Shown: positions 2-20,622 of the stretch, in pieces
How positions within the stretch are numbered: position 1 is the stretch's first letter
Layout: each line of letters begins with the position of its first letter
DNA from: Bellilinea caldifistulae
GTDB taxonomy: Bacteria > Chloroflexota > Anaerolineae > Anaerolineales > Anaerolineaceae
DNA length: 32,000 nucleotides
Direction of reading: 5' to 3'
Assembly (NCBI RefSeq): GCF_001306055.1
Contig: NZ_LGHJ01000024.1
Coordinates: 30,001-62,000, forward strand
Notes under the pieces: generated by a model
Database searches by the model: none
The model's input: the letters and a program-made list of their open reading frames with translations, nothing else
What the model was told of the DNA's origin: nothing
Made by a program: the position numbers and the translations under genes

Positions 2-256
2 CGTCCGGGTGAAAAACTGCACGAAGTGCTGATTTCCGAGGACGAAGCCCGCACCACTGTGGAGTTGGAGGATATGTATGTGGTACAACCGGCTGAAACG
101 CTCTGGTTTGGCCGGGAATGGGAAAAACGCGGCAAACCTCTGCCGGACGGCTTCCGTTATGCCAGCAACACCAACACCGACTGGCTGACGATTGAGAAAA
201 TTCGTGAGATCATCCGTCCGATTGAAGAGGCCTACAAACAGGGAACCCTGGAATGA
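2..256 (+). CDS. UDP-N-acetylglucosamine 4,6-dehydratase family protein (PseB/FlaA1 / CapE-FnlA-WbvB type), C-terminal fragment; 5' end lies outside the window
   Basis: The frame is open to the window edge. Translation from nt 2 reads RPGEKLHEVLISEDEA...FRYASNTNTDWLTIEKI, which matches the conserved C-terminus of Polysacc_synt_2 dehydratases. The GTG at 26 in the ORF track is internal. Stop TGA 254-256 overlaps the next start (ATGA). Confidence 0.75.
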   Translation, partial: RPGEKLHEVLISEDEARTTVELEDMYVVQPAETLWFGREWEKRGKPLPDGFRYASNTNTDWLTIEKIREIIRPIEEAYKQGTLE

Positions 257-1191: not shown

Positions 1192-1216
1192 TTTCTGAGA
1201 AGAAGGAGACAGTCAG

Positions 1217-2290
1217 ATGTCCGTAGAAATCAAAATTGGAAATCGAATCATCGGCGACAATCACCCCACTTACTTTGTGGCTGACATTGCCGCCAACCAT
1301 GATGGCAGTCTGGAACGTGCCAAGTATCTGATCAAGCTTGCCAAACAAGCCGGCGCCGATGCGGCCAAGTTTCAGAACTTTGCCGCACCAAAAATCGTTT
1401 CGGATTACGGCTTCAAGGCGCTGGGTTCGCAGCAATCCCATCAGGCCAGCTGGAAGCGTTCGGTTTTTGAAGTCTATCAATCGGCTTCCATTCCCTTTGA
1501 ATGGACGTATGAGCTTAAGGAAACCTGCGACAAAGTTGGGATTGATTACTTTTCCGCGCCGTATGACTTCGAAGCGATTGATTTCCTTGATGAACATATG
1601 CCGGTTTACAAAATCGGCTCCGGCGATATTGACTGGCTGGAAGCCATTGAGCGGATTGCCCGCAAGGGCAAGCCGGTCTTTCTGGCAACAGGGGCATCCA
1701 ATATCGGTGATGTCCAGCGCGCCGTCCATACCGTGCTGGCGCATAATCCCCAACTGGTGCTGATGCAGTGCAACACCAACTACACCGGTAGTATCGAGAA
1801 TTTCAAACATGTTCACCTGAATGTGTTGAAAACCTACCGCGCCATGTTCCCGAACGTGGTGCTGGGACTTTCGGATCATACCCCCGGACATGCTGCGGTT
1901 TTGGGCGCGGTGGCGTTAGGCGCAAGGGTGATCGAAAAACACTTTACCGATGACAACACCCGCGAAGGCCCGGATCATGCCTTTGCCCTTGATCCGATTG
2001 CCTGGGAAGAGATGGTCATGCGTACCCGCGAGCTGGAAATGGCGCTGGGAGATGGCGACAAACGGGTAGCCGATAATGAACGTGAAACCGTCATCCTGCA
2101 GCGGCGCTGCCTGCGGGCGGCACGCGATATCCGCGCCGGAGAGATCATCACACGTGAGATGATTGATGTGCTGCGGCCGGCAACCCCGGGCGCCATCCTG
2201 CCGCCGGAGATTGATCGCGTGATCGGCACCAAGGCCCTGCGCGATTTGCCGTATGGCAAAGAAATTCGCTGGACGGATTTGGGCGATTGA
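1217..2290 (+). CDS. NeuB-family ulosonic (nonulosonic) acid synthase with C-terminal SAF domain
   Basis: IGDNHPTYFVADIAANHDGSLERAKYLIKLAKQAGADAAKFQNF is the NeuB/PseI/SpsE signature. The C-terminal RRCLRAARDIRAGEIITREMIDVLRP is SAF-like. RBS GAAGGAG lies 8 nt upstream of the ATG. Confidence 0.85.
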   Translation: MSVEIKIGNRIIGDNHPTYFVADIAANHDGSLERAKYLIKLAKQAGADAAKFQNFAAPKIVSDYGFKALGSQQSHQASWKRSVFEVYQSASIPFEWTYELKETCDKVGIDYFSAPYDFEAIDFLDEHMPVYKIGSGDIDWLEAIERIARKGKPVFLATGASNIGDVQRAVHTVLAHNPQLVLMQCNTNYTGSIENFKHVHLNVLKTYRAMFPNVVLGLSDHTPGHAAVLGAVALGARVIEKHFTDDNTREGPDHAFALDPIAWEEMVMRTRELEMALGDGDKRVADNERETVILQRRCLRAARDIRAGEIITREMIDVLRPATPGAILPPEIDRVIGTKALRDLPYGKEIRWTDLGD

Positions 2291-3444
2291 AGATTCTGTA
2301 TTTTTCGCGCGACTACACTCCCCACGACCACCGCTTTTTGAGCGCGCTGGCGCAGTCGCCGCATACCATCTACTACCTGCGGTTGGAGCGGCAGCCCCGT
2401 CAATTGGAAGATCGTCCGTTGCCGCCCCAGGTGGAGCAGGTGGTCTGGCAGGGTGGACGCCAGTCAGCCGGCTGGCGGGACTACCCGCGCCTGCTGAGGG
2501 ACTTAAAACGCGTCATCCGCCAGATTCAACCGGATGTCATCCATGTCGGGCCGATTCAATCGGCGGCTTTTCTGGCGGCGTTGAGCGGTTTTCAGCCGCT
2601 GGTGAGTATGTCGTGGGGTTCGGATCTGCTGCTGGATGCCGGGCGTTCGGCGTGGATGCGCTGGGTGACCCGCTTTACCCTGCGCCGCACCACCGTGCTG
2701 GCAGCCGACTGTCGTACCGTGCAAATAAAAGCCGCCTCCTTTGGATTCCCGGCTGAGCGGGTTGTTCTCTTCCCCTGGGGGGTGGATTTGACTCAATTCC
2801 GCCCCGGCCGGGCGGAGGAGTTCCGGACGCGGCGCGGCTGGCAGGAGGCGTTTGTGGTGCTTTCCCTGCGTACCTGGGAACCGCTCTACGGCGTGGATGT
2901 GGTAGCGCGCGGCTTTGCACGCGCCGCCCGCCAGAATCCGCGCCTGCGTTTGCTGCTGCTGGGCGGCGGCTCGCAGGCAGGCCTGATTCGTACCATCTTT
3001 CAGCAGGAAGGGGTACTGGAACAGGTCTTTTTTGGCGGGCAGGTCAACGGGGATGAACTCCCGCAGTATTATCAGGCTGCCGATTTGTATGTCAGCGCCT
3101 CTCACAGCGATGGTTCTTCGGTTTCGCTGATGGAAGCCCTGGCCAGCGGACTTCCGGTGCTGGTTTCGGACATCCCATCCAACCGCGAGTGGGTGACCGA
3201 CGGTCAGGAGGGCTGGCTCTTCCCGGATGGCGATGATCTCGCTTTGAGCGAGGGGATATTGCGGGCGGCCGGCCAGCCGGAGGTGCTGGCTCCAATGAAA
3301 TTGGCTGCCCGCCGACTCGCCGAGGAACGCGCCAACTGGCCGGTCAATTTTCAGCGCTTGCTGGAAGCCTATCAACGGGCGGTGGATTTGCATCGTTCTT
3401 CACTCTCTTCAATCTCAAAACCCTTGAAGGAGCAGCAACCATGA
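2287..3444 (+). CDS. Glycosyltransferase family 4 (GT-B, Glycos_transf_1)
   Basis: C-terminal EX7E-type region SVSLMEALASGLPVLVSDIPSNREWVTDGQEGWLF. TTG start overlaps the upstream stop. Confidence 0.85.
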   Translation: MKILYFSRDYTPHDHRFLSALAQSPHTIYYLRLERQPRQLEDRPLPPQVEQVVWQGGRQSAGWRDYPRLLRDLKRVIRQIQPDVIHVGPIQSAAFLAALSGFQPLVSMSWGSDLLLDAGRSAWMRWVTRFTLRRTTVLAADCRTVQIKAASFGFPAERVVLFPWGVDLTQFRPGRAEEFRTRRGWQEAFVVLSLRTWEPLYGVDVVARGFARAARQNPRLRLLLLGGGSQAGLIRTIFQQEGVLEQVFFGGQVNGDELPQYYQAADLYVSASHSDGSSVSLMEALASGLPVLVSDIPSNREWVTDGQEGWLFPDGDDLALSEGILRAAGQPEVLAPMKLAARRLAEERANWPVNFQRLLEAYQRAVDLHRSSLSSISKPLKEQQP

Positions 3445-4226
3445 CAGTCACTCCACCCCATGTGGTTGCGATTGTGCAGGGGCGGATGACTTCCAGCCGC
3501 CTGCCGGGCAAAATCCTTGCCGATTTGGGCGGTAAGCCGATGCTGGCACACGTGGTCGAACGGGTGCGCCGGTCTAAAACTGTTCGGCAGGTGGTGGTTG
3601 CCACTACGGTGGATCGCAGTGATGACCCGGTGACCGAATTCTGTCAGAAGCATGGCTATGATTGCTTCCGCGGTAGTTTATTCGATGTGCTGGACCGCTT
3701 TTACGAGGCAGCCCGGGCTTACCGTGCGGATGTGATCGTACGCATTACCGCCGATTGCCCGTTGATTGACCCGCTGGTGATTGACCAGACGGTCGAAGCC
3801 TTTTTTGCTCATCAGGCAGATTTTGCTGCCAACCGCCTGCCGCCGCCGTGGAAACGCACTTTCCCTATTGGATTGGATACGGAAGTGTGCAGTTTTGCGG
3901 CGCTGGAACGTGCCTGGCGCGAAGCGGACAAACCGCATGAGCGCGAGCATGTCATGCCGTATCTGTACGAGGAAGAAGGCCGCTTCAAGGTGCATGTCAT
4001 CCACGCCGGGCAGGATTACGGCAACCTGCGCTGGACGGTGGACACCCCCGAAGATTTGACCGCCATGCGGGCTTTATTTGCCCTGTTTCAAAATCAACCG
4101 CCGCTTTCCTGGCTGGAGGTGCTTCCGGTCTGGCTGCAGCATCCGGAAGTCCAATCGCTCAACGCCGGGGTGCAGCATCACTGGTTCAACGAATATGACG
4201 AACGTTTTGGCAAACAGGAATCGTAA
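3441..4226 (+). CDS. SpsF/PseF-like cytidylyltransferase (CMP-ulosonic acid synthetase family, COG1861 type)
   Basis: VVAIVQGRMTSSRLPGKILADLGGKPML is the nucleotide-binding N-terminus. RITADCPLIDP and WTVDTPEDL motifs are characteristic of SpsF-type enzymes. ATGA overlap with the upstream gene. Confidence 0.85.
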   Translation: MTVTPPHVVAIVQGRMTSSRLPGKILADLGGKPMLAHVVERVRRSKTVRQVVVATTVDRSDDPVTEFCQKHGYDCFRGSLFDVLDRFYEAARAYRADVIVRITADCPLIDPLVIDQTVEAFFAHQADFAANRLPPPWKRTFPIGLDTEVCSFAALERAWREADKPHEREHVMPYLYEEEGRFKVHVIHAGQDYGNLRWTVDTPEDLTAMRALFALFQNQPPLSWLEVLPVWLQHPEVQSLNAGVQHHWFNEYDERFGKQES

Positions 4227-7579: not shown

Positions 7580-7587
7580 GGAAACTC

Positions 7588-8574
7588 ATGAAGTTCTTGA
7601 TCGCCGGTTTTGGTTCGATAGGCCGCAGGCATCTGCGCAATTTGCTGGCGCTGGGGGAGCGCGATATTATCCTGTACCGCACCCACCGTTCCACCCTGCC
7701 GACCGATGAAATTGAGCAGTTCCCCACCGAAACCTCTCTGGAAGCCGCGCTTGCCCACCGTCCCGATGCGGTGATCATCTCCAACCCGACCGCTTTGCAC
7801 CTTTCGGTTGCCATACCGGCTGCCCGGCAGGGCTGCCACATCCTCATGGAAAAGCCGATTTCCCACTCGTTGGAGGGATTGGACGAACTGCGCCGCGCGC
7901 TGGAGCAGGGCGGCGGTCAATTGCTGATGGGATACCAGTTTCGCTTTCATCCTACCTTGCGGACGGCAGCGGCGGTGATCGCCGCCGGTGAGATCGGCCG
8001 GCCGCTGGCGGTGCGGGCGCACTGGGGCGAGTACCTGCCCAACTGGCATCCGTGGGAAGATTACCGCCAGAGTTATGCAGCCCGCCCAGACCTGGGCGGG
8101 GGGGTCATCCTGACCCTCTGCCACCCGCTGGACTACCTGCGGATGATGATTGGAGAAATCCGCTCGGTCAGCGCCATGACGGCTACCATCCCCGAGCTCG
8201 ACCTGAATCTGGATGCGGTGGCGGAAATTCTGCTGGGTTTTGAGAATCAGGCGGTTGGCAGTGTCCATCTGGATTACATTCAGCAGCCGGCCCAACACAC
8301 CGTGCAGGTGATTGGCAGTGAGGGTGTGCTGAATTGGGATAACACCAGTGGCCTGCTCGCCTGGCAGCGGGTGGGAGAAAACCAGCCACACCACGCTCAC
8401 CCGCCGGCGGATTTTGAGCGCAACTGGATGTTTCTGGAACAGATGCGCCATTTTCTGGAAGTGGTGCGCGGAGAAGACCGACCGATTTGTACGCTGGAGG
8501 ACGGCCAACGCGCTTTGCAAATTGCTCTGGCAGCGCTCGATTCGGCCCGGCAGGGACGGACATTCACGATATGA
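7588..8574 (+). CDS. Gfo/Idh/MocA family NAD(P)-dependent oxidoreductase
   Basis: MKFLIAGFGSIGRRHLRNL Rossmann N-terminus and the EKP motif (ILMEKPISH). I chose ATG 7588 over the track start at 7327 because the extension overlaps the upstream CDS and the fold begins at 7588. Confidence 0.85.
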   Translation: MKFLIAGFGSIGRRHLRNLLALGERDIILYRTHRSTLPTDEIEQFPTETSLEAALAHRPDAVIISNPTALHLSVAIPAARQGCHILMEKPISHSLEGLDELRRALEQGGGQLLMGYQFRFHPTLRTAAAVIAAGEIGRPLAVRAHWGEYLPNWHPWEDYRQSYAARPDLGGGVILTLCHPLDYLRMMIGEIRSVSAMTATIPELDLNLDAVAEILLGFENQAVGSVHLDYIQQPAQHTVQVIGSEGVLNWDNTSGLLAWQRVGENQPHHAHPPADFERNWMFLEQMRHFLEVVRGEDRPICTLEDGQRALQIALAALDSARQGRTFTI

Positions 8575-8585
8575 GGAAGAAAACC

Positions 8586-9356
8586 ATGCAAACCCATTCC
8601 CGCTCTCCCATGACATGGATACTCATATGGCTGACGGCTGCCCTCGCTCTGTCTGCCTGTCAACCCCAGCAAAACACCACTCCAACCGCCGATGTTCAGG
8701 AAACGGCGTTGTCTATGGCAAAGACGGCCCTCAACCCGACGGCCAGCCCAACTCCGGCGGCCACTGCTACGCCCTCACCCACGGTAACCCTCACCTTGAC
8801 CGCCACCCCAACGCTGCCGCCGACCGAAACGCCCACACCGGCACCCTTGTTTTCCAGTCTTCGTTTCATCGGCGTAACGGCTCGTTATGATGGCGCCAGC
8901 ATCATCCTTGAAATCCCCAATTTGCAGCAGGTTTACAACCTGACCATCAACGGGGTTAATTATCTTTGTCAACTGGCGGAGAGCGCCCCCAACCGGCTGT
9001 TTTGCAACGGACTCGCCAAACCGCCGGTGGATCAACCGGTGCAGGTGATTTTGCGCGACCCCGAAACCAACCAGGCGGTATTTGAGACTGTCACTTCGAT
9101 CTCGTCCATTCTGGTGGTTACTCCCATGCCTCGTGGCTATTACGACCCGAATTGCCCGCAACGCGGGCTGGACGTGAAATGTGAGATGGAATGCCGCATC
9201 CCGCCCAGCGGTGAACCGTGTGTGGTGGCAAGTTGTTACGATTCGTGCGGGCTGTATTTATCCATTCATACCTGTCCCGAAAATGTGGATGTCTATCCGG
9301 CGCTTTGCACCGACGAACAGTGGGCAGAAATGAAAGCCCGCCACAATATTCCTTGA
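8586..9356 (+). CDS. Secreted lipoprotein with Pro/Thr-rich linker and C-terminal 10-Cys domain (paralog A)
   Basis: Signal peptide with lipobox LALSAC (Cys25), then a PT-rich linker (ASPTPAATATPSPTVTLTLTATPTLPPTETPTPAP), then a Cys-rich domain ending EQWAEMKARHNIP. AGGAAG lies upstream of ATG 8586. Confidence 0.7.
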   Translation: MQTHSRSPMTWILIWLTAALALSACQPQQNTTPTADVQETALSMAKTALNPTASPTPAATATPSPTVTLTLTATPTLPPTETPTPAPLFSSLRFIGVTARYDGASIILEIPNLQQVYNLTINGVNYLCQLAESAPNRLFCNGLAKPPVDQPVQVILRDPETNQAVFETVTSISSILVVTPMPRGYYDPNCPQRGLDVKCEMECRIPPSGEPCVVASCYDSCGLYLSIHTCPENVDVYPALCTDEQWAEMKARHNIP

Positions 9357-9371
9357 GTGAGTGATCAGAAA

Positions 9372-10127
9372 ATGAAATTCTACCGATTGAGTTTGTTGGT
9401 TCCGTTGATTGTGATCGTGGCAGGCTGTGCTTCACCGCTGCCCTTAACGGCCGAGCCGGCCCGCTCAACGCCGACGGAAAGTCCCACGGAGGCGGTAATG
9501 ATCACCTCCACATCCCTGCCGCCGATGCCGACGGCGGTAGAACCCTCTGCAACTTTTACCGCAACGGCAACGCTTCTGCCCAGCCCGACGATTGCGCCAA
9601 CCCCAACCCCGCTGGCGGATTTTTCTTCGCTGCGGGTGATTACGTTGGAAAGCAACACTTTCGGCTGGATGATACAGTTCCACCTGCCCGGAATTGGGCA
9701 GCCTCTGCTATTAAAATTGGATGGGAAAGACTACCGCTGTTCGCTAGACGAGCGTTACCCCGAGCGTTTATTTTGTCAGGGGCTGGCAAAACCGTCCGTG
9801 GATCAATCTATGTTGCTGGTGTTCGTCAATCCAGAAAATGGTGAGGAAGTGTACCGGGGCAGTTTGATCATCCCGCTGGCTTTTATGGTACCGCCAACTC
9901 CGGTGGGTTATCTGCATACGGCTTGCGATCAGCGCGGTAAGAATGTTTCCTGCGAAACAGAATGCCGGATTGATCCAAACGGCAATCCCTGTATTGTGGC
10001 AACCTGTACGGACGCCTGCGGACCTTACTTTGCCGTGCATTCCTGCCCGGATGATATGCCGCTGCCATCCCCTTCCTGCTCAGCGGAACAGTGGGCGATG
10101 ATGAAAAAACGCTATCAAATTCCTTGA
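9372..10127 (+). CDS. Secreted lipoprotein with Pro/Thr-rich linker and C-terminal 10-Cys domain (paralog B)
   Basis: MKFYRLSLLVPLIVIVAGC lipobox (Cys19), a PT-rich linker, and a C-terminal domain colinear with paralog A, with all 10 Cys aligned, ending EQWAMMKKRYQIP. I prefer ATG 9372 to GTG 9357. Confidence 0.7.
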   Translation: MKFYRLSLLVPLIVIVAGCASPLPLTAEPARSTPTESPTEAVMITSTSLPPMPTAVEPSATFTATATLLPSPTIAPTPTPLADFSSLRVITLESNTFGWMIQFHLPGIGQPLLLKLDGKDYRCSLDERYPERLFCQGLAKPSVDQSMLLVFVNPENGEEVYRGSLIIPLAFMVPPTPVGYLHTACDQRGKNVSCETECRIDPNGNPCIVATCTDACGPYFAVHSCPDDMPLPSPSCSAEQWAMMKKRYQIP

Positions 10128-10138
10128 GAGAGGTAAAA

Positions 10139-10963
10139 ATGAGCCACATTCTGGATAAGTTTCGAATGGACGGACAGGTTGCGGTAGTGACCGGCGGGGC
10201 AGGTTTGCTGGGACGGCAATTCTGCCGAACGCTGGCTGAAGCCGGTGCTGCCGTGGTGGTTGCGGATTTGAACCGCATGAGCGCCATCACGCTGGCGGAA
10301 AACCTGCAAAAAGACGGCTATCCGGCGCTTGGCACCGGCGTGGATGTGACCGATCCCGACTCGGTGGAAGATATGGTTGCAGCGGCGGTCAATCATTTTG
10401 GGCGGCTGGATGTGCTGGTGTGCAGTGCCGCCATGGATCCGAAATTCGATGCCGAACACGCTGATCAGCAGCAGGGTAACGCTTTTGAAACCTACCCGCT
10501 GGAAGCCTGGCGGCAGGCACTGGATGTCAACCTGACCGGCATGTTCCTCAGCGCTCAGGCAGCCGTCAAGCCGATGCTGGCGCAGAATCACGGTGTGATC
10601 ATCAATATCTGCTCCACATACGGATTGGTTGGCCCGGATCAGCGGATTTATCAGCGCCCTGGACAACCGCCGCAGTACAAGCCGGTGTTTTACTCCGTCA
10701 CCAAAGCCGGCGTGCTGGGGTTGACCCGCTATCTGGCGACCTATTATGCCGGGCGGAACATTCGCGTGAATGCGCTGACCCCCGGCGGGGTTTATCATCA
10801 GCATGACCCCGTGTTTGTCGAAAATTACAGTTATCGTACCGTGATGGGGCGGATGGCTGAACAGGATGAGATGAACGGCGCATTGCTCTTTCTGGCTTCA
10901 GACGCTTCCAGTTACATGACGGGCGCCAATCTGGTGGTGGACGGAGGCTGGACGGCATGGTGA
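10139..10963 (+). CDS. Classical short-chain dehydrogenase/reductase (SDR)
   Basis: VAVVTGGAGLLGRQF (TGxxxGxG), the NICSTYG region and YSVTKAG (YxxxK). ATG 10139 has the RBS GAGAGAGG. Confidence 0.85.
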   Translation: MSHILDKFRMDGQVAVVTGGAGLLGRQFCRTLAEAGAAVVVADLNRMSAITLAENLQKDGYPALGTGVDVTDPDSVEDMVAAAVNHFGRLDVLVCSAAMDPKFDAEHADQQQGNAFETYPLEAWRQALDVNLTGMFLSAQAAVKPMLAQNHGVIINICSTYGLVGPDQRIYQRPGQPPQYKPVFYSVTKAGVLGLTRYLATYYAGRNIRVNALTPGGVYHQHDPVFVENYSYRTVMGRMAEQDEMNGALLFLASDASSYMTGANLVVDGGWTAW

Positions 10964-12183
10964 ACAACACCGAAGTGCTGGCGATCATCCCGGCGCGCGG
11001 CGGATCGAAGGGCATTCCGCGCAAGAATATCCGCAACTTTGCCGGTCATCCGTTGATTGCGTATAGCATTGCAGCGGCCTTGCAGTCGCGCCGGGTTACC
11101 CGGGTGATTGTTTCGACCGATGACCCCGAAATTGCCGAGGTGTCCCGCTCCTACGGAGCCGAGGTGCCCTTCCTGCGCCCGGCCGAACTGGCTCAGGACT
11201 CGACACTGGATTTGCCGGTCTTTCAACATGCTCTGGCATGGTTGACGGCCAATGAAGCCTATGCTCCAGATGTGGTGGTGCAGCTTCGCCCGACTTCTCC
11301 GATCCGCCCGGTAGGGTTGGTGGACGAGGCCGTGCGGATTCTGCTGGAACACCCCGAAGCCGACTCCGTGCGGGGTGTGGTGCCGGCCGGACAAAACCCT
11401 CACAAGATGTGGCGGATTGACCTGCAAACCGGACAGATGAAAAATTTGCTGGATGTGCCGGGGGTGCCGGAGCCGTACAATGCGCCCCGTCAGATCCTGC
11501 CGCCGGTTTACTGGCAGACCGGCCACATTGACGCCATCCGCCCGGTGACGATTCTAGAAAAAAATTCGATGAGCGGCGAGGTGATTTTACCGGTGATGAT
11601 TGACCCGCGCTACACGGTGGATATTGACTCGCTCTCAGATTGGGTGCGGGCCGAGTGGCTGGTGTATCACGGCGGGCTGGAGATGGTGCATCCCGGCCGG
11701 GTGCGCCGTCCATTGCCGGATGAGGTGACTCTGGTGGTTTTCGATTTCGACGGCGTGCTGACCGATAACCGCGTGTGGGTGGATTCCGAGGGCCATGAGT
11801 TCGTTGCCGCCTATCGCTCGGACAGCCTCGGCATTCAAGCGTTGCACAAAGCCGGCATCCAGACGCTGGTGCTTTCGACCGAAAAAGATGGGGCGGTTTC
11901 GGCCCGCTGCCGAAAAATGGGTGTGCCGGTGTTGCAAGGTGTGGAGGATAAAGCCGCGCGGTTGACCGAATACCTCAAAGAGCATGAACTCGATGCTCGC
12001 TCGGTCATCTTTGTGGGGAACGATGTCAATGATTTGACCTGTTTCGATCTGGTAGGCTGTGCGGTGGCTGTTGCCGATGCCCAGCCGGAAGTGCTGCGTC
12101 AGGCAGACCTGATTTTGACCCGTCGGGGTGGATATGGTGCCGTACGCGAGCTGTGTGATCTGCTGTTGCACAGGCAGGAATAA
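10957..12183 (+). CDS. Bifunctional fusion of an acylneuraminate-type cytidylyltransferase (NeuA/CTP_transf_3) with a KdsC-family HAD phosphatase
   Basis: The N-terminal half has LAIIPARGGSKGIPRKNIRNFAGHPLIAYSI. The C-terminal half has VVFDFDGVLTDN (DxD nucleophile motif at 11743-11754), STEKD, and GNDVNDL..VADA typical of Kdo-8-P/KDN-9-P phosphatases. Confidence 0.85.
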   Translation: MVNNTEVLAIIPARGGSKGIPRKNIRNFAGHPLIAYSIAAALQSRRVTRVIVSTDDPEIAEVSRSYGAEVPFLRPAELAQDSTLDLPVFQHALAWLTANEAYAPDVVVQLRPTSPIRPVGLVDEAVRILLEHPEADSVRGVVPAGQNPHKMWRIDLQTGQMKNLLDVPGVPEPYNAPRQILPPVYWQTGHIDAIRPVTILEKNSMSGEVILPVMIDPRYTVDIDSLSDWVRAEWLVYHGGLEMVHPGRVRRPLPDEVTLVVFDFDGVLTDNRVWVDSEGHEFVAAYRSDSLGIQALHKAGIQTLVLSTEKDGAVSARCRKMGVPVLQGVEDKAARLTEYLKEHELDARSVIFVGNDVNDLTCFDLVGCAVAVADAQPEVLRQADLILTRRGGYGAVRELCDLLLHRQE

Positions 12184-12221
12184 AACTGGATTGTTCGATT
12201 GAATTCTTAAGGAGTGAACCA

Positions 12222-13097
12222 ATGGCAAAGGCAGTCAAAATAGGGGATCGTTGGGTGGGGGATGGCCATCCCACCTATGTCGTGGCTGAAATTGGCATCA
12301 ATCACAACGGCGATATTGAAATTGCCAAGCGCTTGATGGATGCCGCCAAACATGCCGGGGTGGATGCGGTCAAGTTTCAAAAACGCACCCCCGAACTGTG
12401 CACCCCGCCCGATCAGCGTAATGTGATGCGTGAGACGCCGTGGGGCTACATCACCTATCTGGAATACCGCCATAAAATCGAATTTGGTGAGGCGGAATAC
12501 CGCGAAGTGGACCGTTACGCCAAAGAAATCGGGATCACCTGGTTCGTTTCGGTTTGGGATGAGCCCTCGGTGGACTTCATCGAGGCTTTTGACCCGGTGG
12601 CGTATAAAGTACCATCTGCTGCCCTGACCGATCACGGCTTGTTGCGTAAACTACGTTCGACCGGCCGACCGATCATCCTCTCGACCGGCATGTCCACCAT
12701 TGACCAGATCAAGGCGGCGGTGGAACTGCTGGATATGGAAAACCTGATTATCTGTCATACCACGAGTGCTTATCCCTGCCCGCCGGAAGAACTCAATCTG
12801 CGCATGGTGCAGACCCTCAAAGAGACCTATCCCTGCCCGATTGGGTACTCCGGTCATGAAGTCGGTTTGATCCCCTCGGTGGTAGCGGTTGCGTTGGGGG
12901 CTTGTCTGGTGGAACGTCACATCACCCTCGACCGCGCCATGTGGGGATCGGATCAGGCGGCTTCGGTAGAGCCGGGCGGCTTTGAACGACTGGTCAAATA
13001 CATCCGCGTCACCGAACTTTCGCTGGGTGACGGCGTGAAACGGGTGTACGACAGCGAACTGCCCTCTTTGAAAAAACTGCGCAGGGTGTTCAACTAA
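12222..13097 (+). CDS. NeuB-family ulosonic-acid synthase, short form lacking the SAF domain
   Basis: IGDRWVGDGHPTYVVAEIGINHNGDIEIAKRLMDAAKHAGVDAVKFQKR is the signature. At 291 aa it ends right after the TIM-barrel region, and no SAF-like tail is present. RBS AAGGAG. Confidence 0.85.
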   Translation: MAKAVKIGDRWVGDGHPTYVVAEIGINHNGDIEIAKRLMDAAKHAGVDAVKFQKRTPELCTPPDQRNVMRETPWGYITYLEYRHKIEFGEAEYREVDRYAKEIGITWFVSVWDEPSVDFIEAFDPVAYKVPSAALTDHGLLRKLRSTGRPIILSTGMSTIDQIKAAVELLDMENLIICHTTSAYPCPPEELNLRMVQTLKETYPCPIGYSGHEVGLIPSVVAVALGACLVERHITLDRAMWGSDQAASVEPGGFERLVKYIRVTELSLGDGVKRVYDSELPSLKKLRRVFN

Positions 13098-13103
13098 TCC
13101 AGC

Positions 13104-14720
13104 ATGAACTGGACGGTGGAGCGCATCCGCAAGGGCGTGCAGCGGCGCTGGCTGCAAGCGCAGAATAACCGGCGCCTGGCTGATCTGGCAGCGCAAATTG
13201 AACGAAATGCGCCGCCGGTGGTCGATTCGCGCCCGGTGGTGATGTTCAATGCGTCCAGCCGGCTGGCGTGGATGAGCCTGAATGCGGCGTTTACCCTGCT
13301 GAGCGGTTGGGGTTTGCGTCTGGCGGGGGTGCCGGTGGTGCATTTCGTCTGCCGGGCGGGGATGACGCGTTGTCAACTCGGCAGTGCGCTGACCCCGTTT
13401 GACCAACCGCCGCCGTGTGCGGCTTGCGTCCGCCAGTCGGGGCATCTTTACCGCAACGGAAAGGTGCGCTGGTTTGAGTACCAGCCGGTGGAAGAAGTCG
13501 AACGCGCCACAGCCGGTCTGCCGCTGACCGATTTGATGGGTTTTGGGTGGCAGGGTTTACCGCTGGGTGAACTGGTGCTGCCATCGCTGCGCTGGGCGCT
13601 GCGCCGCCATGATCTGGAAGATGACGAGCCGACCCGCTTTCTGCTCAGGCAGTTCCTTCTTTCGGCGGCGCGGGTGGCGGTGGAGTTTTCCCGCTTTGTT
13701 GAGGAAGTGCAGCCCCGGGCGGTGGTGGTATTCAACGGCGTTTCCTACCCGGAGGCGGTGGCAAGGCAGATTGGACAGAAGCACGGCCTGCCGGTGATTA
13801 CGCACGAGGTGGGCTTACAGCCGTTCAGTGCTTTCTTCTCGCACGGGCATGCAACTGCCTACCCGATTGATGTGCCGTCCAATTTTGAACTCAACCCGGA
13901 CCGGGAAGCGCGCCTGAACGCTTACCTTGAAAAACGCTTTCAGGGGCAGTTCAGCATGGCGGGCATCCGCTTTTGGCAGGACATGCGTCATCTGGATGAG
14001 GGTTTACTGCAAAAGGCAGCTGCCTTCCGTCAAATTGTGCCGGTTTTTACCAATGTGATATTTGATACCAGCCAAATCCACGCCAACATCCTCTTCCGGG
14101 ATATGTTCGCCTGGCTGGATGAGGTGTTGGAGATCATCCGCGCTCACCCCGAAACCCTGTTTGTGGTGCGGGCTCATCCCGATGAAGACCGTCCCGGCAA
14201 ACAAGCTCGCCAGAGTGTTACCGGCTGGGCTGCCCAAAAACGGCTGACTGATTTGCCGAACGTGGTGTTCATTCCGCCGGCGGAATATCTGAGTTCTTAT
14301 GAGTTGATCCAACGCTCCAAATTTGTGATGGTTTATAATTCGACCATCGGTCTGGAAGCCTCTATCCTGGGGAGTGCGGTGTTGTGCGGCGGGCAGGCAC
14401 GCTACACCCGTCTGCCAACCGTGTTTTTGCCCCAATCGGCCGAGGATTTTCGCCGGATGGCGGAAGCCTTTTTACGCGCCGAGCGAGTTAGTCCACCGCC
14501 TGAGTTTCAACGAAACGCCCGCCGATTTTTGTACTATCAACTATTTCGGGCTTCACTGCCGTTTGATGCCTTTTTGGAAGAGGACCTGACTCCCGGTTTT
14601 GTGCGCCTGAAAAAGAACCTGGGCTGGCAGGACTTTTTGCCCGAATCTTCCCCCACGCTGGCGGTGATCAACCGCGGGGTGCTTCAGGGTGAGCCGTTTT
14701 TGCTACCGGAGGAGGATTAA
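13104..14720 (+). CDS. Capsule_synth (KpsC/KpsS)-like GT-B protein; candidate CMP-ulosonic-acid transferase
   Basis: VVVFNGVSYPEAVARQIGQKHGLPVITHEVG, then LFVVRAHPDEDRPGK (HP codons at 14175-14180), then VMVYNSTIGLEASILGSAVLCGGQARY. This closely mirrors the KpsC/KpsS beta-Kdo transferase motif order. The N-terminus carries a CX6C...CX2C cluster. Confidence 0.55.
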   Translation: MNWTVERIRKGVQRRWLQAQNNRRLADLAAQIERNAPPVVDSRPVVMFNASSRLAWMSLNAAFTLLSGWGLRLAGVPVVHFVCRAGMTRCQLGSALTPFDQPPPCAACVRQSGHLYRNGKVRWFEYQPVEEVERATAGLPLTDLMGFGWQGLPLGELVLPSLRWALRRHDLEDDEPTRFLLRQFLLSAARVAVEFSRFVEEVQPRAVVVFNGVSYPEAVARQIGQKHGLPVITHEVGLQPFSAFFSHGHATAYPIDVPSNFELNPDREARLNAYLEKRFQGQFSMAGIRFWQDMRHLDEGLLQKAAAFRQIVPVFTNVIFDTSQIHANILFRDMFAWLDEVLEIIRAHPETLFVVRAHPDEDRPGKQARQSVTGWAAQKRLTDLPNVVFIPPAEYLSSYELIQRSKFVMVYNSTIGLEASILGSAVLCGGQARYTRLPTVFLPQSAEDFRRMAEAFLRAERVSPPPEFQRNARRFLYYQLFRASLPFDAFLEEDLTPGFVRLKKNLGWQDFLPESSPTLAVINRGVLQGEPFLLPEED

Positions 14721-15714: not shown

Positions 15715-16413
15715 ATGAAGACAGACCCCATGATTGTGGCACTGGTGCCCATGCGCCATCACTCGGTGCGTGTACCCGGCAAGAACTACCGTCCGCTGGC
15801 GGGAAAACCGCTCTTTCACCATATTTTGAGCGCTTTGCTGCAAACTCCGGAAATCGGCCGGGTGGTGGTGGACACCGACTCGCCGGTATTGATGGAGGGA
15901 ATTTCCCGTGATTTTCCGCAGGTGACCCTGCTGGAACGCCCGGCTCACCTGACGGCGGACACGGTGCCGATGAATGAAATTTTGATGTACGATACCGAAC
16001 AGGTGGCAGCCGATTTTTACCTGCAAACCCATTCCACCAATCCGCTGCTGCGCCCGCAAACCATCTCCAAAGCCATCCAGACTTTTCTCAGCCATTACCC
16101 GGCTTATGATTCACTCTTTTCGGTGACCCGTCTGCAAACCCGCTTGTGGGACGGGCTGGCTCGACCGATCAATCACAACCCGGCGATCCTGCTGCGCACC
16201 CAGGATTTACCGCCGGTTTACGAGGAAAATTCCTGCATGTATATTTTTACACGCCAAACCCTGGCACAGCGGCGTAACCGGATTGGCGAACGTCCCTATC
16301 TATTTGAAATGGATCCGCTTGAAGCCCGCGACATTGATGAAGAGTTCGATTTCCTTCTGGCGGATTTGCTGATGCGCCAGCGGCTGCAGGCCGAAAGCGG
16401 CAGGGAGGACTGA
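15715..16413 (+). CDS. Acylneuraminate cytidylyltransferase family protein (third CMP-activating enzyme)
   Basis: IVALVPMRHHSVRVPGKNYRPLAGKPLFHHIL plus LQTHSTNPLLRP, a CTP_transf_3 / NeuA-like fold. 232 aa. Confidence 0.85.
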   Translation: MKTDPMIVALVPMRHHSVRVPGKNYRPLAGKPLFHHILSALLQTPEIGRVVVDTDSPVLMEGISRDFPQVTLLERPAHLTADTVPMNEILMYDTEQVAADFYLQTHSTNPLLRPQTISKAIQTFLSHYPAYDSLFSVTRLQTRLWDGLARPINHNPAILLRTQDLPPVYEENSCMYIFTRQTLAQRRNRIGERPYLFEMDPLEARDIDEEFDFLLADLLMRQRLQAESGRED

Positions 16414-17393
16414 TGTACACGGTATTGCTTTCTGCACCGTACATGCTGCCGGTGGTGGAGCGCTTCCGCCCCTTGTTCGATCACTACGGGTTGACGGTTA
16501 TCGTTCCGCCAGTTCATGAACGGCTTTCCGAGCAGGAAATTCTGGCGTATGCCGGCCGGTTCGATGCCACGATTTGCGGCGATGACCGCTATACCGAGCG
16601 GGTGCTGCAAGCCTGCGCCCCGCGATTGAAGGTGATTTCCAAATGGGGGACGGGGATTGACTCGATTGACCGGGCTGCAGCAGCCCGGCTGGGCATTCAG
16701 GTGCGCAATACGCCGAATGCCTTTACGCTGCCGGTTTCAGACAGCGTGCTGGGCTACATTCTCGCCTTTGCCCGTCAGCTGCCGTGGATGGATCGCGCCA
16801 TGAAGGATGGCCGGTGGGAAAAACTGCCAGGCCGTTCGTTGAGTGAATGTACGCTGGGAGTGGTGGGGGTCGGAAATGTCGGCAAGGCGGTGCTGCGGCG
16901 GGCGCGGGCGTTTGGGATGCGCCTGCTGGGTAACGATATTGTGCCGATTGCGCCGGATTTCGTCCTCGAAAACGGAGTGGAGATGACCGGTCTGCGTGAT
17001 TTGCTGGAACGCTCCGACTTTATCAGCCTGAACTGCGATTTGAACCCGACCAGCTATCATCTGATCAACGCTGAGACGCTGGGATGGGTCAAACCCGGAG
17101 CGGTATTAATCAACACAGCGCGCGGGCCGGTGGTGGACGAGCCCGCGCTGATTGCCGCCCTTCAAGAAGGACGGTTGGCCGGCGCGGCGCTGGATGTTTT
17201 TGAGGTGGAACCGCTGCCGCTTGATTCGCCTCTGTTGAAGATGGACAATGTTCTGCTGGCAGCGCATAATTCCAATTCCAGCCCGGCAGCATGGGAGCGC
17301 GTTCACTGGAACACCATCCGCAATCTGCTGGATGGTTTGGGCCTGGATGTGAGCGGTTTGGAAGAGTGGAGAAAACGTTTGGGCAGAGATTGA
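16413..17393 (+). CDS. D-isomer-specific 2-hydroxyacid dehydrogenase (phosphoglycerate/glycerate dehydrogenase-like)
   Basis: LGVVGVGNVGKAVLRRARAFGM (GxGxxG), INTARGPVVDE and the LLAAHNS catalytic His region. Its start shares 1 nt with the upstream stop (TGATG). Confidence 0.85.
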   Translation: MYTVLLSAPYMLPVVERFRPLFDHYGLTVIVPPVHERLSEQEILAYAGRFDATICGDDRYTERVLQACAPRLKVISKWGTGIDSIDRAAAARLGIQVRNTPNAFTLPVSDSVLGYILAFARQLPWMDRAMKDGRWEKLPGRSLSECTLGVVGVGNVGKAVLRRARAFGMRLLGNDIVPIAPDFVLENGVEMTGLRDLLERSDFISLNCDLNPTSYHLINAETLGWVKPGAVLINTARGPVVDEPALIAALQEGRLAGAALDVFEVEPLPLDSPLLKMDNVLLAAHNSNSSPAAWERVHWNTIRNLLDGLGLDVSGLEEWRKRLGRD

Positions 17394-17409
17394 GGATGAG
17401 TCCTTTAGT

Positions 17410-19059
17410 ATGAGCCAAAAATTGGAACGAAGATTATTGATCTTGATTTTGACGGCGTATGGGGTGTATGCGGTTGTCTTTATCGCAAAGACCATCTTTT
17501 GGGTGGATGGAATCCCCTATTCAGCGCTTTTCGACGATATGATGATTTCAATGACCTATGCCCGCAATCTGGCACAGGGGTATGGACTGGTGTGGAATCC
17601 CGGCGGTGAACGGGTAGAAGGCTTCAGCAATCCGTTGTGGGTGGCGTTTATGGCGTTGTTTCATTTGCTGCCCATCCCGGAAAACTGGATCAGTCTGGCG
17701 GTGCAAATCAGCGGCGGGGTCTTTTTCCTCGCCAGTTTGCTGGTGCTGCGGCGGGTGGCTGAACAGGTTTCCGCCCGGCAGGCACGGGTTGTTTTGCTGG
17801 CGGTGCTGTTGACCGCTTTTTACTACCCACTCAGCAACTGGTCGCTGTTGGGGTTGGAGGTCAGTGTGTTGCTGCTGATGGTCAACCTCTCCATGTTTCT
17901 CGCCTTGCGCACACTGGAGAGCGGGCAATTTTCGCGCCGGCTGTACCTGCTGATGGGGCTGGCTACGCTGGTGCGGGTGGATGCAGCCGTCACTTACCTG
18001 ACCGTGTGGGGATTGCTGGTGTGGTTTGACCGTGCCAACCGCCGCCGTCACTTAATTGAAGGCAGTCTCTTCTTGCTGCTATTTGTGGGTGGTCAGACGC
18101 TGGCGCGCAAACTGTACTACGGCGAATGGGTGCCGAACACCTACATTCTCAAGGTGGAAGGGCTGCCGCTTTGGGCGCGCTTGCGTCGCGGATTGCAGGT
18201 GACCTGGAACTTCGTGCGCGGCTTTTCTCCATTACTGATGATCTTTCCCTTCACGGTCTTTCTTTTCCGCCGTGACCGGAAAGTGTTGCTGGTGGCACTG
18301 GTCTTTATGGCGCAGGTAGCGTACAGCATCTACGTCGGCGGGGATGCCTGGGAGCACCGTGGCGGGGCGAACCGCTTTGTGGCGTTGGGAATGCCGGCCG
18401 TGTTTGTCCTCTTCTCGCTGGCGGCGTGGGAGTGGTATGACCGGCTTGGCGACTGGTTGCACCAACGCGGTGGGGCTTTGGCGCGCGGTCTGATCCGGCT
18501 GATGCCGGTCGGGCTGGCCGCTTTCATCCTGCTGAGCATGCTTCTTTGGAACCGAATGCCGGGGAATTATGGGATTATTACCAGCCTGAGGCGGATTGAT
18601 GAAGGTGAGTTGCGTTTTTTCCTGCTGCTGGATCGCTCCATTTACGTGCCGGGTAATGAGCGATACACCCGTGATGCGATCATCATCCGCCGGCTGACTC
18701 AGCCGGATGCCAGTGTGGCGATGGTAGCTGCCGGCAATATCTGCTACTTCTCCCATCGCTACTGCATTGATTTACTGGGCAAGAGTGACCCGGTGATTGC
18801 CCGTGGTGGCATTCAGGTGCCGCCAGATGCGGACTGGCGCGAATTGCAGCCGGGGCATATCAAGTTCAACTATCAGTATTCCATTGGAACACTCAAACCC
18901 GATGTGGTGGTTGAAATCCGCCGCAGTACGGGGGATATTGCCGAAAAGTATCTGGATGATGAATACCTCATGGCAAAAGTGAACACCCATCCGATGTACT
19001 TCCGCAAAGACTCCAACAAAATAGATTGGGTACAATTAGAATATGTCCGAGAAGATTGA
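17410..19059 (+). CDS. Polytopic membrane protein, GT-C-fold glycosyltransferase-like, with C-terminal soluble domain
   Basis: Many predicted TM helices across the N-terminal ~400 aa. An acidic DD motif sits in the first loop (SALFDDMMISMTYARNL), as in GT-C enzymes. The C-terminal ~150 aa are hydrophilic. Confidence 0.5.
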   Translation: MSQKLERRLLILILTAYGVYAVVFIAKTIFWVDGIPYSALFDDMMISMTYARNLAQGYGLVWNPGGERVEGFSNPLWVAFMALFHLLPIPENWISLAVQISGGVFFLASLLVLRRVAEQVSARQARVVLLAVLLTAFYYPLSNWSLLGLEVSVLLLMVNLSMFLALRTLESGQFSRRLYLLMGLATLVRVDAAVTYLTVWGLLVWFDRANRRRHLIEGSLFLLLFVGGQTLARKLYYGEWVPNTYILKVEGLPLWARLRRGLQVTWNFVRGFSPLLMIFPFTVFLFRRDRKVLLVALVFMAQVAYSIYVGGDAWEHRGGANRFVALGMPAVFVLFSLAAWEWYDRLGDWLHQRGGALARGLIRLMPVGLAAFILLSMLLWNRMPGNYGIITSLRRIDEGELRFFLLLDRSIYVPGNERYTRDAIIIRRLTQPDASVAMVAAGNICYFSHRYCIDLLGKSDPVIARGGIQVPPDADWRELQPGHIKFNYQYSIGTLKPDVVVEIRRSTGDIAEKYLDDEYLMAKVNTHPMYFRKDSNKIDWVQLEYVRED

Positions 19060-19813
19060 AAACCGAATTGTGTTGATTACCGGCGCTGCCGGTGGGATTG
19101 GAAGGGCAACGGTCAGTTTGTTCGTCGAGCGCGGCTGGCGGGTGATTGGGGTTGACCGGCAATCCTTTGGTGAGGATTTTCCGGTTGAGGGATTGTTCAT
19201 CCAGGCGGATATTTCCGAACCAGCCCAGCTGGAGGGTATCTACGAAAAAACGCGCGCCTACACCGGCCAGTTGAATGCCGTCATTCACAACGCTGCCCTG
19301 CAAATTGCCAAACCGCTAATCGAAACTACCGCCGAGGAATGGGATGCGGTGATGGCATCGAACCTGCGTTCGGTGTTTCTGGGGGCAAAACTGGCCTATC
19401 CGCTGCTCAAAGCAGCCGGCGGCGGGGCAATTGTCAATGTTTCCTCGGTTCATGCGGTTGCCACTTCCGCCAACATTGCTGCATATGCAGCCAGCAAGGG
19501 CGGTCTGCTGGCCCTGACCCGTGCCATGGCGATTGAATTTGCTCCCGACAACATCCGAGTCAATGCCATTTTGCCGGGTGCGGTGGATACCCCCATGCTG
19601 CGCGCCGGTTTGAACCGCGGACATGTCGGCGGGGAAACGATTTACGACCGCCTTGAAAATCTGGCACGCAAGACGGTCAACGGACGGATCGGCAAGCCCG
19701 AAGAAATTGCCCACGCCATTTATTTCCTGGCTGATGACACCCAGTCTTCGTTTATGACCGGTCAGGCGTTGATTGTGGATGGCGGGGCGACAGCGAGGCT
19801 CAGCACCGAATGA
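19043..19813 (+). CDS. Classical short-chain dehydrogenase/reductase (SDR)
   Basis: IVLITGAAGGIGRAT, NAAL, SSVHA and YAASKGG (YxxxK). The start overlaps the upstream gene by 17 nt. Confidence 0.85.
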   Translation: MSEKIENRIVLITGAAGGIGRATVSLFVERGWRVIGVDRQSFGEDFPVEGLFIQADISEPAQLEGIYEKTRAYTGQLNAVIHNAALQIAKPLIETTAEEWDAVMASNLRSVFLGAKLAYPLLKAAGGGAIVNVSSVHAVATSANIAAYAASKGGLLALTRAMAIEFAPDNIRVNAILPGAVDTPMLRAGLNRGHVGGETIYDRLENLARKTVNGRIGKPEEIAHAIYFLADDTQSSFMTGQALIVDGGATARLSTE

Positions 19814-20622
19814 GCGGATGGCGTGAGACGCTTAAGAAAATCTTGCCGCCGAGCGCGGTTGACCTGCTGCGTGAGGCGCGCGACGGCCTGGTGCGGCTGG
19901 GCGACTTGCCGGATGCTTACGGCCATCCTTGGCGGCGAGACACGATTCGCCGGCTGCCGGCCCTGAGGAACAGTCAGCGCGGCAAACGCTGTTTCATCCT
20001 TGGTAACGGCCCGAGTCTGGCCAGAACCGATCTGACCCGCCTGCGGGATGAATACACCATCGGCCTCAACCGCATTTATCTGGCTTTTCCGCAGATGGGC
20101 TTTGAGACCAGTTACTACCTCTCGATCAACGATCTGGTCATCGAGCAATGCGCCGAGGAGATCAAAACGCTCAAAATGCCGCGCTTCGTTTCGTGGCGGG
20201 CGCACCGCTGGCTGCAACCGGACGATAATCTTTACTTTCTCTACACCACCTACACCGGACCAAGGTTCGCCCGTGATCTGACCGGCCGGGTCTGGGAAGG
20301 GGCAACCGTGACCTACGTCGCTTTGCAGGTGGCGTTTTACCTCGGCTTTGAGACGGTGATTTTGATTGGGGTGGATCACAACTTCACCACCCAGGGCAAA
20401 CCCAACACGACCGTGGTTTCGCAGGGAGATGACCCCAATCACTTTCACCCCGGCTACTTTGGTAAGGGATTCCGCTGGCAGCTGCCGGATCTGGAAACAT
20501 CCGAACGGGCTTATCGCATGGCGCGTGCCGCTTACGAAGCCGAGGGCCGACGTGTGCTGGATGCAACCATCGGCGGAAAATTAACCGTTTTTCCCAAAGT
20601 GGATTACGACTCGCTATTCTGA
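19810..20622 (+). CDS. DUF115/Maf-like or GT42 (Cst-II)-like putative nonulosonic-acid transferase
   Basis: CFILGNGPSLARTDLTRLRDEYTIGLNRIY (GNGPSL codons at 20002-20019) parallels the Cst-II N-terminus IIAGNGPSLKEIDYSRL...FRCNQFY. TYVALQVAFYLGFETVILIGVDHNF parallels SGVYMCAVAIALGYKEIYLSGIDFY. Downstream His residues are present (NHFHPGYFG). Confidence 0.5.
   Translation: MSGWRETLKKILPPSAVDLLREARDGLVRLGDLPDAYGHPWRRDTIRRLPALRNSQRGKRCFILGNGPSLARTDLTRLRDEYTIGLNRIYLAFPQMGFETSYYLSINDLVIEQCAEEIKTLKMPRFVSWRAHRWLQPDDNLYFLYTTYTGPRFARDLTGRVWEGATVTYVALQVAFYLGFETVILIGVDHNFTTQGKPNTTVVSQGDDPNHFHPGYFGKGFRWQLPDLETSERAYRMARAAYEAEGRRVLDATIGGKLTVFPKVDYDSLF

Follow-up and report, generated by a model that had tools for sequence, protein, structure and literature searches.

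A 32,000-nt stretch of Bellilinea caldifistulae contig NZ_LGHJ01000024.1 (the window, meaning this whole length; all coordinates are positions within it) encodes, side by side, a short-chain dehydrogenase/reductase (SDR), a cytidylyltransferase (CT) fused to a HAD-type phosphatase, and a short NeuB-family synthase that lacks a SAF domain (NeuB-short). The three probably constitute a self-contained module for making a CMP-activated 3-deoxy-nonulosonic acid by way of a 9-phosphate intermediate. The sequences make the phosphorylated route itself likely; that it ends in unmodified Kdn is about an even call. The window as a whole reads as one long glycan cluster with nearly all of its genes on the plus strand, and the module occupies the following positions:

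10091-10963, plus strand: SDR (adh_short_C2, 1.3e-49), the third conserved member of the module
10957-12183, plus strand: CT-HAD fusion of 408 aa (list of open reading frames (ORFs), Pfam and NCBIfam matches)
10957-11664, plus strand: cytidylyltransferase (CMP-ulosonate synthetase) half of the fusion, residues 1-236
11722-12183, plus strand: KdsC-like type C0 HAD phosphatase half of the fusion, residues 256-408
12222-13097, plus strand: SAF-less NeuB-family synthase of 291 aa (NeuB-short; PF03102), a predicted nonulosonate-9-P synthase

What the sequences show, as described below, is which domains are present, which residues are conserved, where the proteins fall in trees and which genes stay together; from this we infer the substrates and the order of the steps. 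NeuB-short would condense phosphoenolpyruvate (PEP) with a hexose 6-phosphate, most likely mannose 6-phosphate (Man-6-P), to give a nonulosonate 9-phosphate (Kdn-9-P). The C-terminal HAD half would remove the 9-phosphate, with Asp263 as the nucleophile and with Glu309, Arg317 and Lys320 binding the sugar. The N-terminal CT half would then join the free sugar acid to CMP from CTP, and one or more downstream glycosyltransferases would use the CMP-sugar. It is plausible, as a hypothesis, that the fusion channels one step into the next; many unfused relatives are encoded by separate genes, so channelling by fusion would not be required. Pfam and NCBIfam scans of the window proteins found no NeuC, aminotransferase, 4,6-dehydratase or N-acetyltransferase, which leaves nothing in the window to supply a non-phosphorylated 2-acetamido sugar. 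The habitat also fits: Kdn is abundant in the extracellular polymeric substances of sludge, where Anaerolineae are common (PMC10483923).

The first-pass annotation of this DNA had described a NeuA-type CMP-transferase fused to a KdsC-family phosphatase and, next to it, a NeuB of 291 aa. Both ORFs lie exactly where it placed them, and bases 11743-11754 do translate to the DFDG motif that it had picked out. Its two domains are borne out by profile matches: residues 9-145 match Pfam CTP_transf_3 (PF02348, 3.7e-22) and residues 8-235 NCBIfam PseF-like (2.6e-46), and residues 256-407 match KdsC (NF007019, 3e-33), Hydrolase_3 and the KDN-9-P phosphatase family (NF058599, 6e-23), at E-values that chance does not come near. 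The annotation had also named an assembly or frameshift artefact, with a stop between the domains, as a possible source of error. This can be ruled out: among the matches listed there are more than 100 near-full-length homologues (406-417 aa, both domains, independent contigs), named ones coming from Bellilinea, Thermanaerothrix and other Anaerolineae, and each of the 80 best genome loci (species representatives, nearly all labelled Anaerolineae or other Chloroflexota) has a single continuous fusion ORF with no stop between the domains. When 1.84 billion cluster representatives were searched exhaustively, the best 150 (50%-identity clusters) included 83 CT-HAD fusions and 4 reversed HAD-CT fusions. 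One of the loci collected (L040, DYKQ01000126.1, 5.4 kb) is labelled as a Thiomonas intermedia metagenome-assembled genome and has a 64%-identical Anaerolineae-type fusion with a NeuB-short downstream; the contig is probably contamination from binning, and the gene not betaproteobacterial.

The HAD half has the residues expected of an active enzyme. In addition to motif I (DFDG), it has a loop with Ser307, Glu309, Arg317 and Lys320 (11875-11916) and a GNDVND motif IV (12016-12033). Its closest PDB match is 3mmz (1.4e-40), and structures of KdsC and BT1713, the Kdn-9-P phosphatase of Bacteroides thetaiotaomicron, match at 1e-19 to 1e-25; such PDB matches are enough to decide the fold. Among the 83 diverse fused representatives, Asp263, Asp265, Ser/Thr307 and Lys332 are each conserved in all 83; motif IV takes the form G-N-D-x-x-D, with Asn355 in 76, Asp356 in 80 and Asp359 in 81; and Glu309, Arg317 and Lys320 are kept in 81, 80 and 82. 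The catalytic and triad residues are likewise present in 78 of 78 sequences from metagenome loci (77 of 78 for the nucleophile) and in 80 of 80 from Anaerolineae. The triad is informative about the substrate: work by Lu in 2009 and by Daughtry in 2013 is said to have assigned sugar binding in BT1713 to Glu56, Arg64 and Lys67, and to have proposed Glu56 and Lys67 as markers that separate Kdn-9-P from Kdo-8-P phosphatases. Glu309, Arg317 and Lys320 of the window protein align with exactly these three residues (the BT1713 sequence having been checked against the supplement of PMC6200933), whereas KdsC of E. coli and P. syringae has Arg, Arg and Thr or Ser at the corresponding positions. As a prediction from these residues, then, it is well supported that the HAD half is a working phosphatase of the Kdn-9-P type and departs from the Kdo-8-P pattern.

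Two other readings of the HAD half have to be weighed against this one. In the first, the HAD half would be KdsC of the ordinary kind, and the module would lead through Kdo-8-P to a Kdo-type sugar with eight carbons. KdsC does give the top NCBIfam score of the HAD half (115 bits), and many homologues are named "YrbI/KdsC". Yet both KdsC cut-offs are missed (115 vs 208 bits for NF007019 and 99.5 vs 106.95 for TIGR01670), Glu and Lys stand where KdsC has Arg and Thr/Ser, and a neighbour-joining (NJ) tree groups the three KdsC enzymes (193/200) to the exclusion of the window HAD. KdsA is found in 0 of 39 metagenome loci, the synthase partner being always of the NeuB family, and Anaerolineae are generally regarded as lacking lipopolysaccharide. 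An ordinary KdsC is therefore extremely improbable. The same tree bears on the position of the HAD half among phosphatases, which the first-pass annotation had wanted settled against both KdsC and the KDN-9-P phosphatases. The separation from KdsC held; the grouping with BT1713 itself was not reached, and the fused "GND" HAD lineage forms its own branch (80/200 alone, 135/200 together with the mouse C-domain).

In the second reading, the HAD half is a non-catalytic platform for oligomerisation, as in vertebrate CMAS, and NeuB-short condenses a non-phosphorylated sugar in the manner of NeuB, PseI or LegI. Vertebrate CMAS has the same CT-then-HAD layout with a C-domain that lacks phosphatase activity (PMC8636478), and the change of Asp to Asn in motif IV is common to mouse CMAS and the window protein. 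The catalytic residues and the sugar triad, however, are essentially invariant over the 83 + 78 + 80 sequences, whereas in the mouse domain the nucleophile and two of the triad residues, Arg and Lys, are gone. A scaffold also leaves unexplained why stand-alone HADs of the same lineage adjoin NeuB and CT genes, and the reversed domain order also occurs. This reading is accordingly very unlikely.

The synthase points in the same direction. NeuB-short covers the whole PF03102 profile (1-241 of 241, 7e-76) and gives no SAF match in Pfam, in keeping with the earlier description of a SAF-less enzyme; the other NeuB of the window (1217-2290) has the domain. Equivalents of NmNeuB Glu25, Lys53, Lys129, His215, Glu234, His236 and Asp247 are present, and Glu134 is replaced by Ala. 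NeuB-short is 64% identical to a Streptomyces NeuB and 36% to the Kdn-9-P synthetase of the alga P. parvum. Pairwise scores are not discriminating on their own as proof of a Kdn-9-P synthase, since those against Kdn-9-P synthases (142-159 bits) bracket the 144 bits obtained against the window paralogue, and a small bootstrapped NJ tree (not a maximum-likelihood tree) was used instead. In that tree a split supported by 190/200 unites NeuB-short, the Streptomyces NeuB, all HAD-associated metagenome NeuBs, BT1714 of B. thetaiotaomicron and the P. parvum enzyme. On the other side are NmNeuB, which uses N-acetylmannosamine (ManNAc), together with PseI, SpsE, the window NeuB with SAF and the SAF-less Leptospira protein 6ncs. 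The marks of a canonical bacterial NeuB or PseI, namely equivalog scores and a C-terminal SAF domain, are both absent from NeuB-short, whose PseI score is 207 bits against a cut-off of 340.25. NeuB-short is thus predicted to be a nonulosonate-9-P synthase, most likely for Kdn-9-P, and the comparison of synthases that had been proposed at the outset came out in favour of the proven Kdn-9-P enzymes.

One part of the original argument does not survive the tree. The lack of SAF had been taken as a mark of the phosphorylated route, but BT1714 (346 aa) has SAF and falls inside the clade, and the SAF-less Leptospira 6ncs falls outside it, so the equation of SAF-less with phosphorylated was rejected. 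SAF-less NeuBs are in any case a documented environmental group (PMC8208679).

Conservation of the gene neighbourhood is the third line of evidence. Of the 80 Anaerolineae loci, 76 show the downstream side of the fusion, and in 67 of these the very next gene is NeuB; none of the 67 has SAF, and their modal length is 289-295 aa. On the upstream side the adjacent gene is the SDR gene in 63 of 71, so that what is conserved is a triad of SDR, fusion and NeuB. A Capsule_synth-type gene follows NeuB in about half of the loci, and a GFO/IDH/MocA oxidoreductase (GFO) gene is located just upstream of the SDR gene in many of them, as well as in several metagenome and Prevotella-like loci. The first-pass annotation had the fusion and NeuB-short right as partners; its gene set left out the coupled SDR and the frequent GFO enzyme, and it had passed over the missing Kdn gatekeeper in the CT pocket. 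Since the genome scan gave only Anaerolineae, context across phyla was drawn from other loci. In 39 metagenome loci the sequence on both sides of the HAD gene can be read; 34 of them have NeuB, 33 a CT and, as noted above, none KdsA. These loci were retrieved by a motif typical of this HAD lineage, and the counts describe that lineage, not HADs in general. The gene orders include HAD-NeuB-CT, NeuB-HAD-CT, HAD-CT-GFO-SDR-NeuB and GFO-SDR-CT·HAD-NeuB (the dot marking a fusion), and both orders of the fusion occur. SAF is found in 1 of the 48 complete NeuB ORFs of the metagenome loci, a distal second copy. In two of these loci (L098 and L099) the HAD-adjacent NeuB is 341 aa long, with an 80-residue C-terminal extension that matches neither SAF query and could be either a SAF that has diverged or some other added domain.

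The proposal that a dedicated phosphatase betrays a route through a 9-phosphate ulosonate, like the KDN-9-P route of Bacteroides, is supported by all three lines: the residues of the HAD half, both trees, and a gene association that persists across phyla and gene orders. Several observations nevertheless weigh against the module as we describe it. First, its proteins stay below the equivalog cut-offs that would name them: NeuB-short scores 250 bits where NeuB requires 399.65, the CT half scores 158 where the PseF-like family requires 206, and the HAD half scores 81.7 against a cut-off of 180 for KDN-9-PPhBT (NF058599), in addition to missing those for KdsC. Second, the NJ tree does not place the HAD lineage as sister of BT1713. 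Third, the first position of motif IV is Asn355, where BT1713 and KdsC have a Mg-binding Asp; being invariant in the lineage, the Asn is probably tolerated. Fourth, the CT pocket has Met205 in place of the Kdn gatekeeper Arg196, and the textbook Kdn pathway has no place for the conserved SDR and GFO genes. Finally, what speaks for a phosphorylated route in this lineage comes from sequence and gene order.

The CT pocket and the two oxidoreductases bear on the identity of the sugar. The CT half has the CTP_transf_3 fold with its CTP-binding N-terminal motif, IPARGGSKGIPRKN, and among PDB entries it matches NeuA (9ftb, 2.4e-29), PpNeuA (9t4z, 1.4e-16) and CMAS structures. In PpNeuA, Gln110 is described as strictly conserved and Arg196 is an experimentally validated gatekeeper for Kdn: the change R196L switches the preference to Neu5Ac (PMC12934254). 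At the positions of PpNeuA Gln110, Tyr183 and Arg196 the window protein has Arg111 (11287-11289), Asp192 (11530-11532) and Met205 (11569-11571). All 80 Anaerolineae loci have this Arg and this Asp, with either Met or Leu at the third position, whereas a Gln/Tyr/Arg pocket occurs in 34 other fused representatives. By sequence the CT half would work like CMAS, yet it is not assigned here as a Kdn-specific CMAS, and the missing gatekeeper Arg means that the final sugar may not be plain Kdn.

This raises the possibility that the phosphorylated route is as described and the product is something other than plain Kdn. The GFO and SDR enzymes could epimerise the hexose 6-phosphate, Kdn or CMP-Kdn could be tailored later, or the synthase could convert ManNAc-6-P to Neu5Ac-9-P, with the CT pocket adapted to the sugar in question. 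The contrast between the pocket of the window protein and that of Kdn-specific PpNeuA, its constancy over the 80 Anaerolineae species, and the different (Tyr...Arg) pocket of Kdn-making Streptomyces all suggest such an adaptation. The SDR gene is translationally coupled to the fusion and was retained in most loci, and GFO and SDR genes also accompany a cluster with a BT1713 homologue in Prevotella-like contigs. The orthology of these two genes with those of the window was rejected as a claim, because the similarity is at family level only (23-31% identity). BT1713 itself was reportedly found by Wang in 2008 to hydrolyse Neu5Ac-9-P too. On the other hand, NeuBs with Gln/Tyr/Arg-type and with Arg/Asp-type CT partners are intermixed in the NeuB tree, from which the synthase step is probably the same in both, and the window NeuB is close to that of Streptomyces. 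The SDR gene also adjoins fusions of the Gln/Tyr/Arg type (for example in locus L159), and no clear link appeared between pocket type and presence of the SDR, the Gln/Tyr/Arg-type loci being too few. A gene for the supply of ManNAc-6-P was not seen in the window. Trout CMAS, with Leu at the gatekeeper position, still prefers Kdn (PMC12934254). On balance, this reading is rather unlikely.

A more specific form of the idea is that the module makes an undescribed deaminated nonulosonic acid, such as a stereoisomer or an oxidised derivative of Kdn, with the GFO/SDR pair epimerising the hexose 6-phosphate precursor or tailoring the product, and with an Arg/Asp/Met-pocket CT subfamily that evolved to activate it. 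This we consider unlikely. The best NCBIfam match of the SDR is PRK09186 (182 bits, below the cut-off), and its best PDB matches are a polyol dehydrogenase (3awd) and gluconate 5-dehydrogenase; the GFO enzyme is inositol 2-dehydrogenase-like at 114 bits, far below the cut-off. Under the preferred reading, a Kdn-9-P route, the two enzymes may act as epimerases or tailoring enzymes on either the precursor or the product, so that the sugar at the end may be Kdn itself or something closely derived from it.

Within the window the order of the sub-module is GFO, two secreted paralogues, SDR, fusion, NeuB-short, a Capsule_synth/BFO_1060-like glycosyltransferase and a GT2 gene. The stop codon of the SDR gene overlaps the ATG of the fusion (ATGGTGA); its true start is probably the ATG at 10139 (MSHILDKF...). 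NeuB-short is preceded by an AGGAG ribosome-binding site 8 nt upstream. The flanking members are:

7582-8574, plus strand: GFO/IDH/MocA oxidoreductase (Pfam GFO_IDH_MocA domains), a frequent accessory of the module
8487-9356 and 9357-10127, plus strand: two tandem secreted Thr/Pro-rich paralogues, between the GFO and SDR genes
13104-14720, plus strand: candidate CMP-ulosonate-dependent glycosyltransferase, Capsule_synth/BFO_1060-like (PF05159 2e-8 and NF046086 3.5e-11, both weak)

The gene at 13104-14720 is put forward as the glycosyltransferase that would use the CMP-ulosonate on the strength of its position and these matches. In each of the two tandem paralogues a hydrophobic N-terminal segment and a Cys-rich C-terminal domain are joined by a long linker rich in Thr and Pro; neither protein matches a Pfam or NCBIfam family. 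They are possible acceptors of O-glycosylation by this cluster. Other parts of the window also concern sugars of this kind, and in total it holds three CMP-transferases and two NeuBs. A second ulosonate-type module (253-4226, plus strand) consists of an RmlD-like reductase, the NeuB with SAF (1217-2290), a GT4 gene and, at 3441-4226, a KdsB-like cytidylyltransferase similar to the ORF located upstream of BT1714 in B. thetaiotaomicron. No genes for precursor supply are visible in this module; they may sit upstream of the window start. The third cytidylyltransferase (15715-16413, in the region 15715-20622, plus strand) has Tyr and Arg at PpNeuA positions 183 and 196, which is the Kdn-type gatekeeper; after it come a D-2-hydroxyacid dehydrogenase, an ORF of 549 aa that matches no family, another SDR and a MptE/Maf-like protein. 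Further on (21573-24514, plus strand), a PMT_2-family membrane glycosyltransferase adjoins a DUF6056 protein, a pair that suggests transfer of protein- or lipid-linked glycans at the outward-facing side of the membrane.

Much of the framework for this pathway already exists. The Kdn-9-P route is known in B. thetaiotaomicron and P. parvum, and the Glu/Lys marker pair has likewise been described. The abstract of Daughtry's 2013 study is said to mention that Kdn-9-P phosphatase orthologues occur fused to the nucleotidyltransferase of the pathway. The route and the fusion are less new than the first-pass annotation implied, the Kdn-9-P routes being published and the CT-HAD architecture known (PMC8636478). 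What this locus adds is the predicted extension of the pathway to Anaerolineae, a CT pocket of a type not previously characterised, and the coupled SDR and GFO enzymes; current understanding is not overturned. If the reading is right, phosphate-route synthases could be told from NeuB, PseI and LegI by their clade together with a neighbouring HAD of the Glu/Lys type, and not by SAF. Surveys of nonulosonic acids in sludge and other environments state that they currently cannot distinguish phosphate-route from ordinary synthases (PMC10483923). Anaerolineae, which are dominant filaments in digesters and granular sludge, would be likely producers of the abundant Kdn there. Should the sugar instead prove to be the undescribed one, CTs of the Arg/Asp/Met subfamily, whether fused or free, would be markers of a sugar that is widespread among environmental bacteria and has gone unrecognised.

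The known systems resemble the module in different respects. The Kdn pathway of B. thetaiotaomicron, as recounted through a paper that cites the original work (Wang 2008 and Lu 2009, cited in PMC6200933), comprises BT1714 as Kdn-9-P synthase, BT1713 as Kdn-9-P phosphatase and a CMP-Kdn synthetase. As in the window, a NeuB-family synthase, a type C0 HAD with the Glu/Arg/Lys triad and a cytidylyltransferase are encoded together. Unlike in the window, they are three separate genes, BT1714 has SAF, and motif IV of BT1713 begins with Asp where the window protein has Asn. Identity between the two sets of proteins is 34-35%, and NeuB-short and BT1714 share the 95% clade. The Kdn-9-P synthetase of P. 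parvum has been proven biochemically, using Man-6-P and PEP and being specific for Man-6-P (PMC6200933). It is, like NeuB-short, a SAF-less NeuB (312 aa) of the same clade with a KFQKR motif, at the 36% identity given above. This alga differs in being eukaryotic, in that no phosphatase homologue was found, and in having a separate, membrane-anchored CT with Arg196 where the window protein has Met205. In Leptospira interrogans a NeuB fused to a phosphatase-like domain was argued to indicate an animal-like phosphorylated route to sialic acid (PMC3438082). The argument from a gene fusion to a phosphorylated route in a bacterium is the same as here; the fused enzyme there is the synthase and not the CT, its partner is an unrelated endonuclease/phosphatase-like domain, and 6ncs lies outside the Kdn-9-P synthase clade.

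The closest counterpart is found in Streptomyces, whose cell walls contain a Kdn teichulosonic acid attributed to the cluster SCO4873-SCO4882, in which SCO4880 is listed as a "transferase" and SCO4881 as a "polysaccharide biosynthesis-like protein" (PMC11481543, PMC13011467, PMC8003754). The product is chemically established as Kdn (PMC11481543); the route is known from genetics, and the enzymes of the cluster are here assigned, as predictions from their sequences. In the locus compared with the window (L081, GCA_001700545.1), the gene immediately after the CT-HAD fusion encodes a SAF-less NeuB (312 aa), and motif IV (GNDVND) is identical to that of the window. NeuB is 64% and the HAD half 49% identical, and PDB 3mmz belongs to the HAD lineage that the two have in common. 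A run of N at about 7750-7850 of L081 interrupts the CT half, and gene callers report a 226-aa "HAD" only; the same frame behind the run carries the C-terminal part of a CT, which shows that Streptomyces too has the CT-HAD fusion. Many Streptomyces homologues are flagged "partial" in databases, which hides the fusion. A GT2 gene, a gene of the polysialyltransferase family and an acyltransferase gene lie alongside HAD and NeuB in divergent orientation, with no SDR or GFO within 8 kb. The Streptomyces system differs from that of the window in its Tyr...Arg Kdn-type CT pocket and in a transferase of the polysialyltransferase family.

In vertebrate CMAS the C-domain is HAD-like and lacks phosphatase activity, and the CT-HAD architecture has been noted in vertebrates and "some bacteria" (PMC8636478). 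The vertebrate structures (PDB 1qwj and 3ewi) have the domain order of the window protein and a GN[DE]xxD motif IV. The mouse C-domain (3ewi) differs from it in motif I, which reads N-I-D-G (the nucleophile Asp being changed to Asn), and in having Leu at the equivalents of both Arg64 and Lys67; the window HAD, with its catalytic residues intact, does not fall into this inactive type. The comparison of sequences suggests that the dead vertebrate domain is a decayed member of the bacterial fused lineage, descended from an active CT-phosphatase fusion. The bacterial CT-HAD fusion would then be the catalytically intact counterpart of the vertebrate C-domain, making the origin of that domain easier to study.

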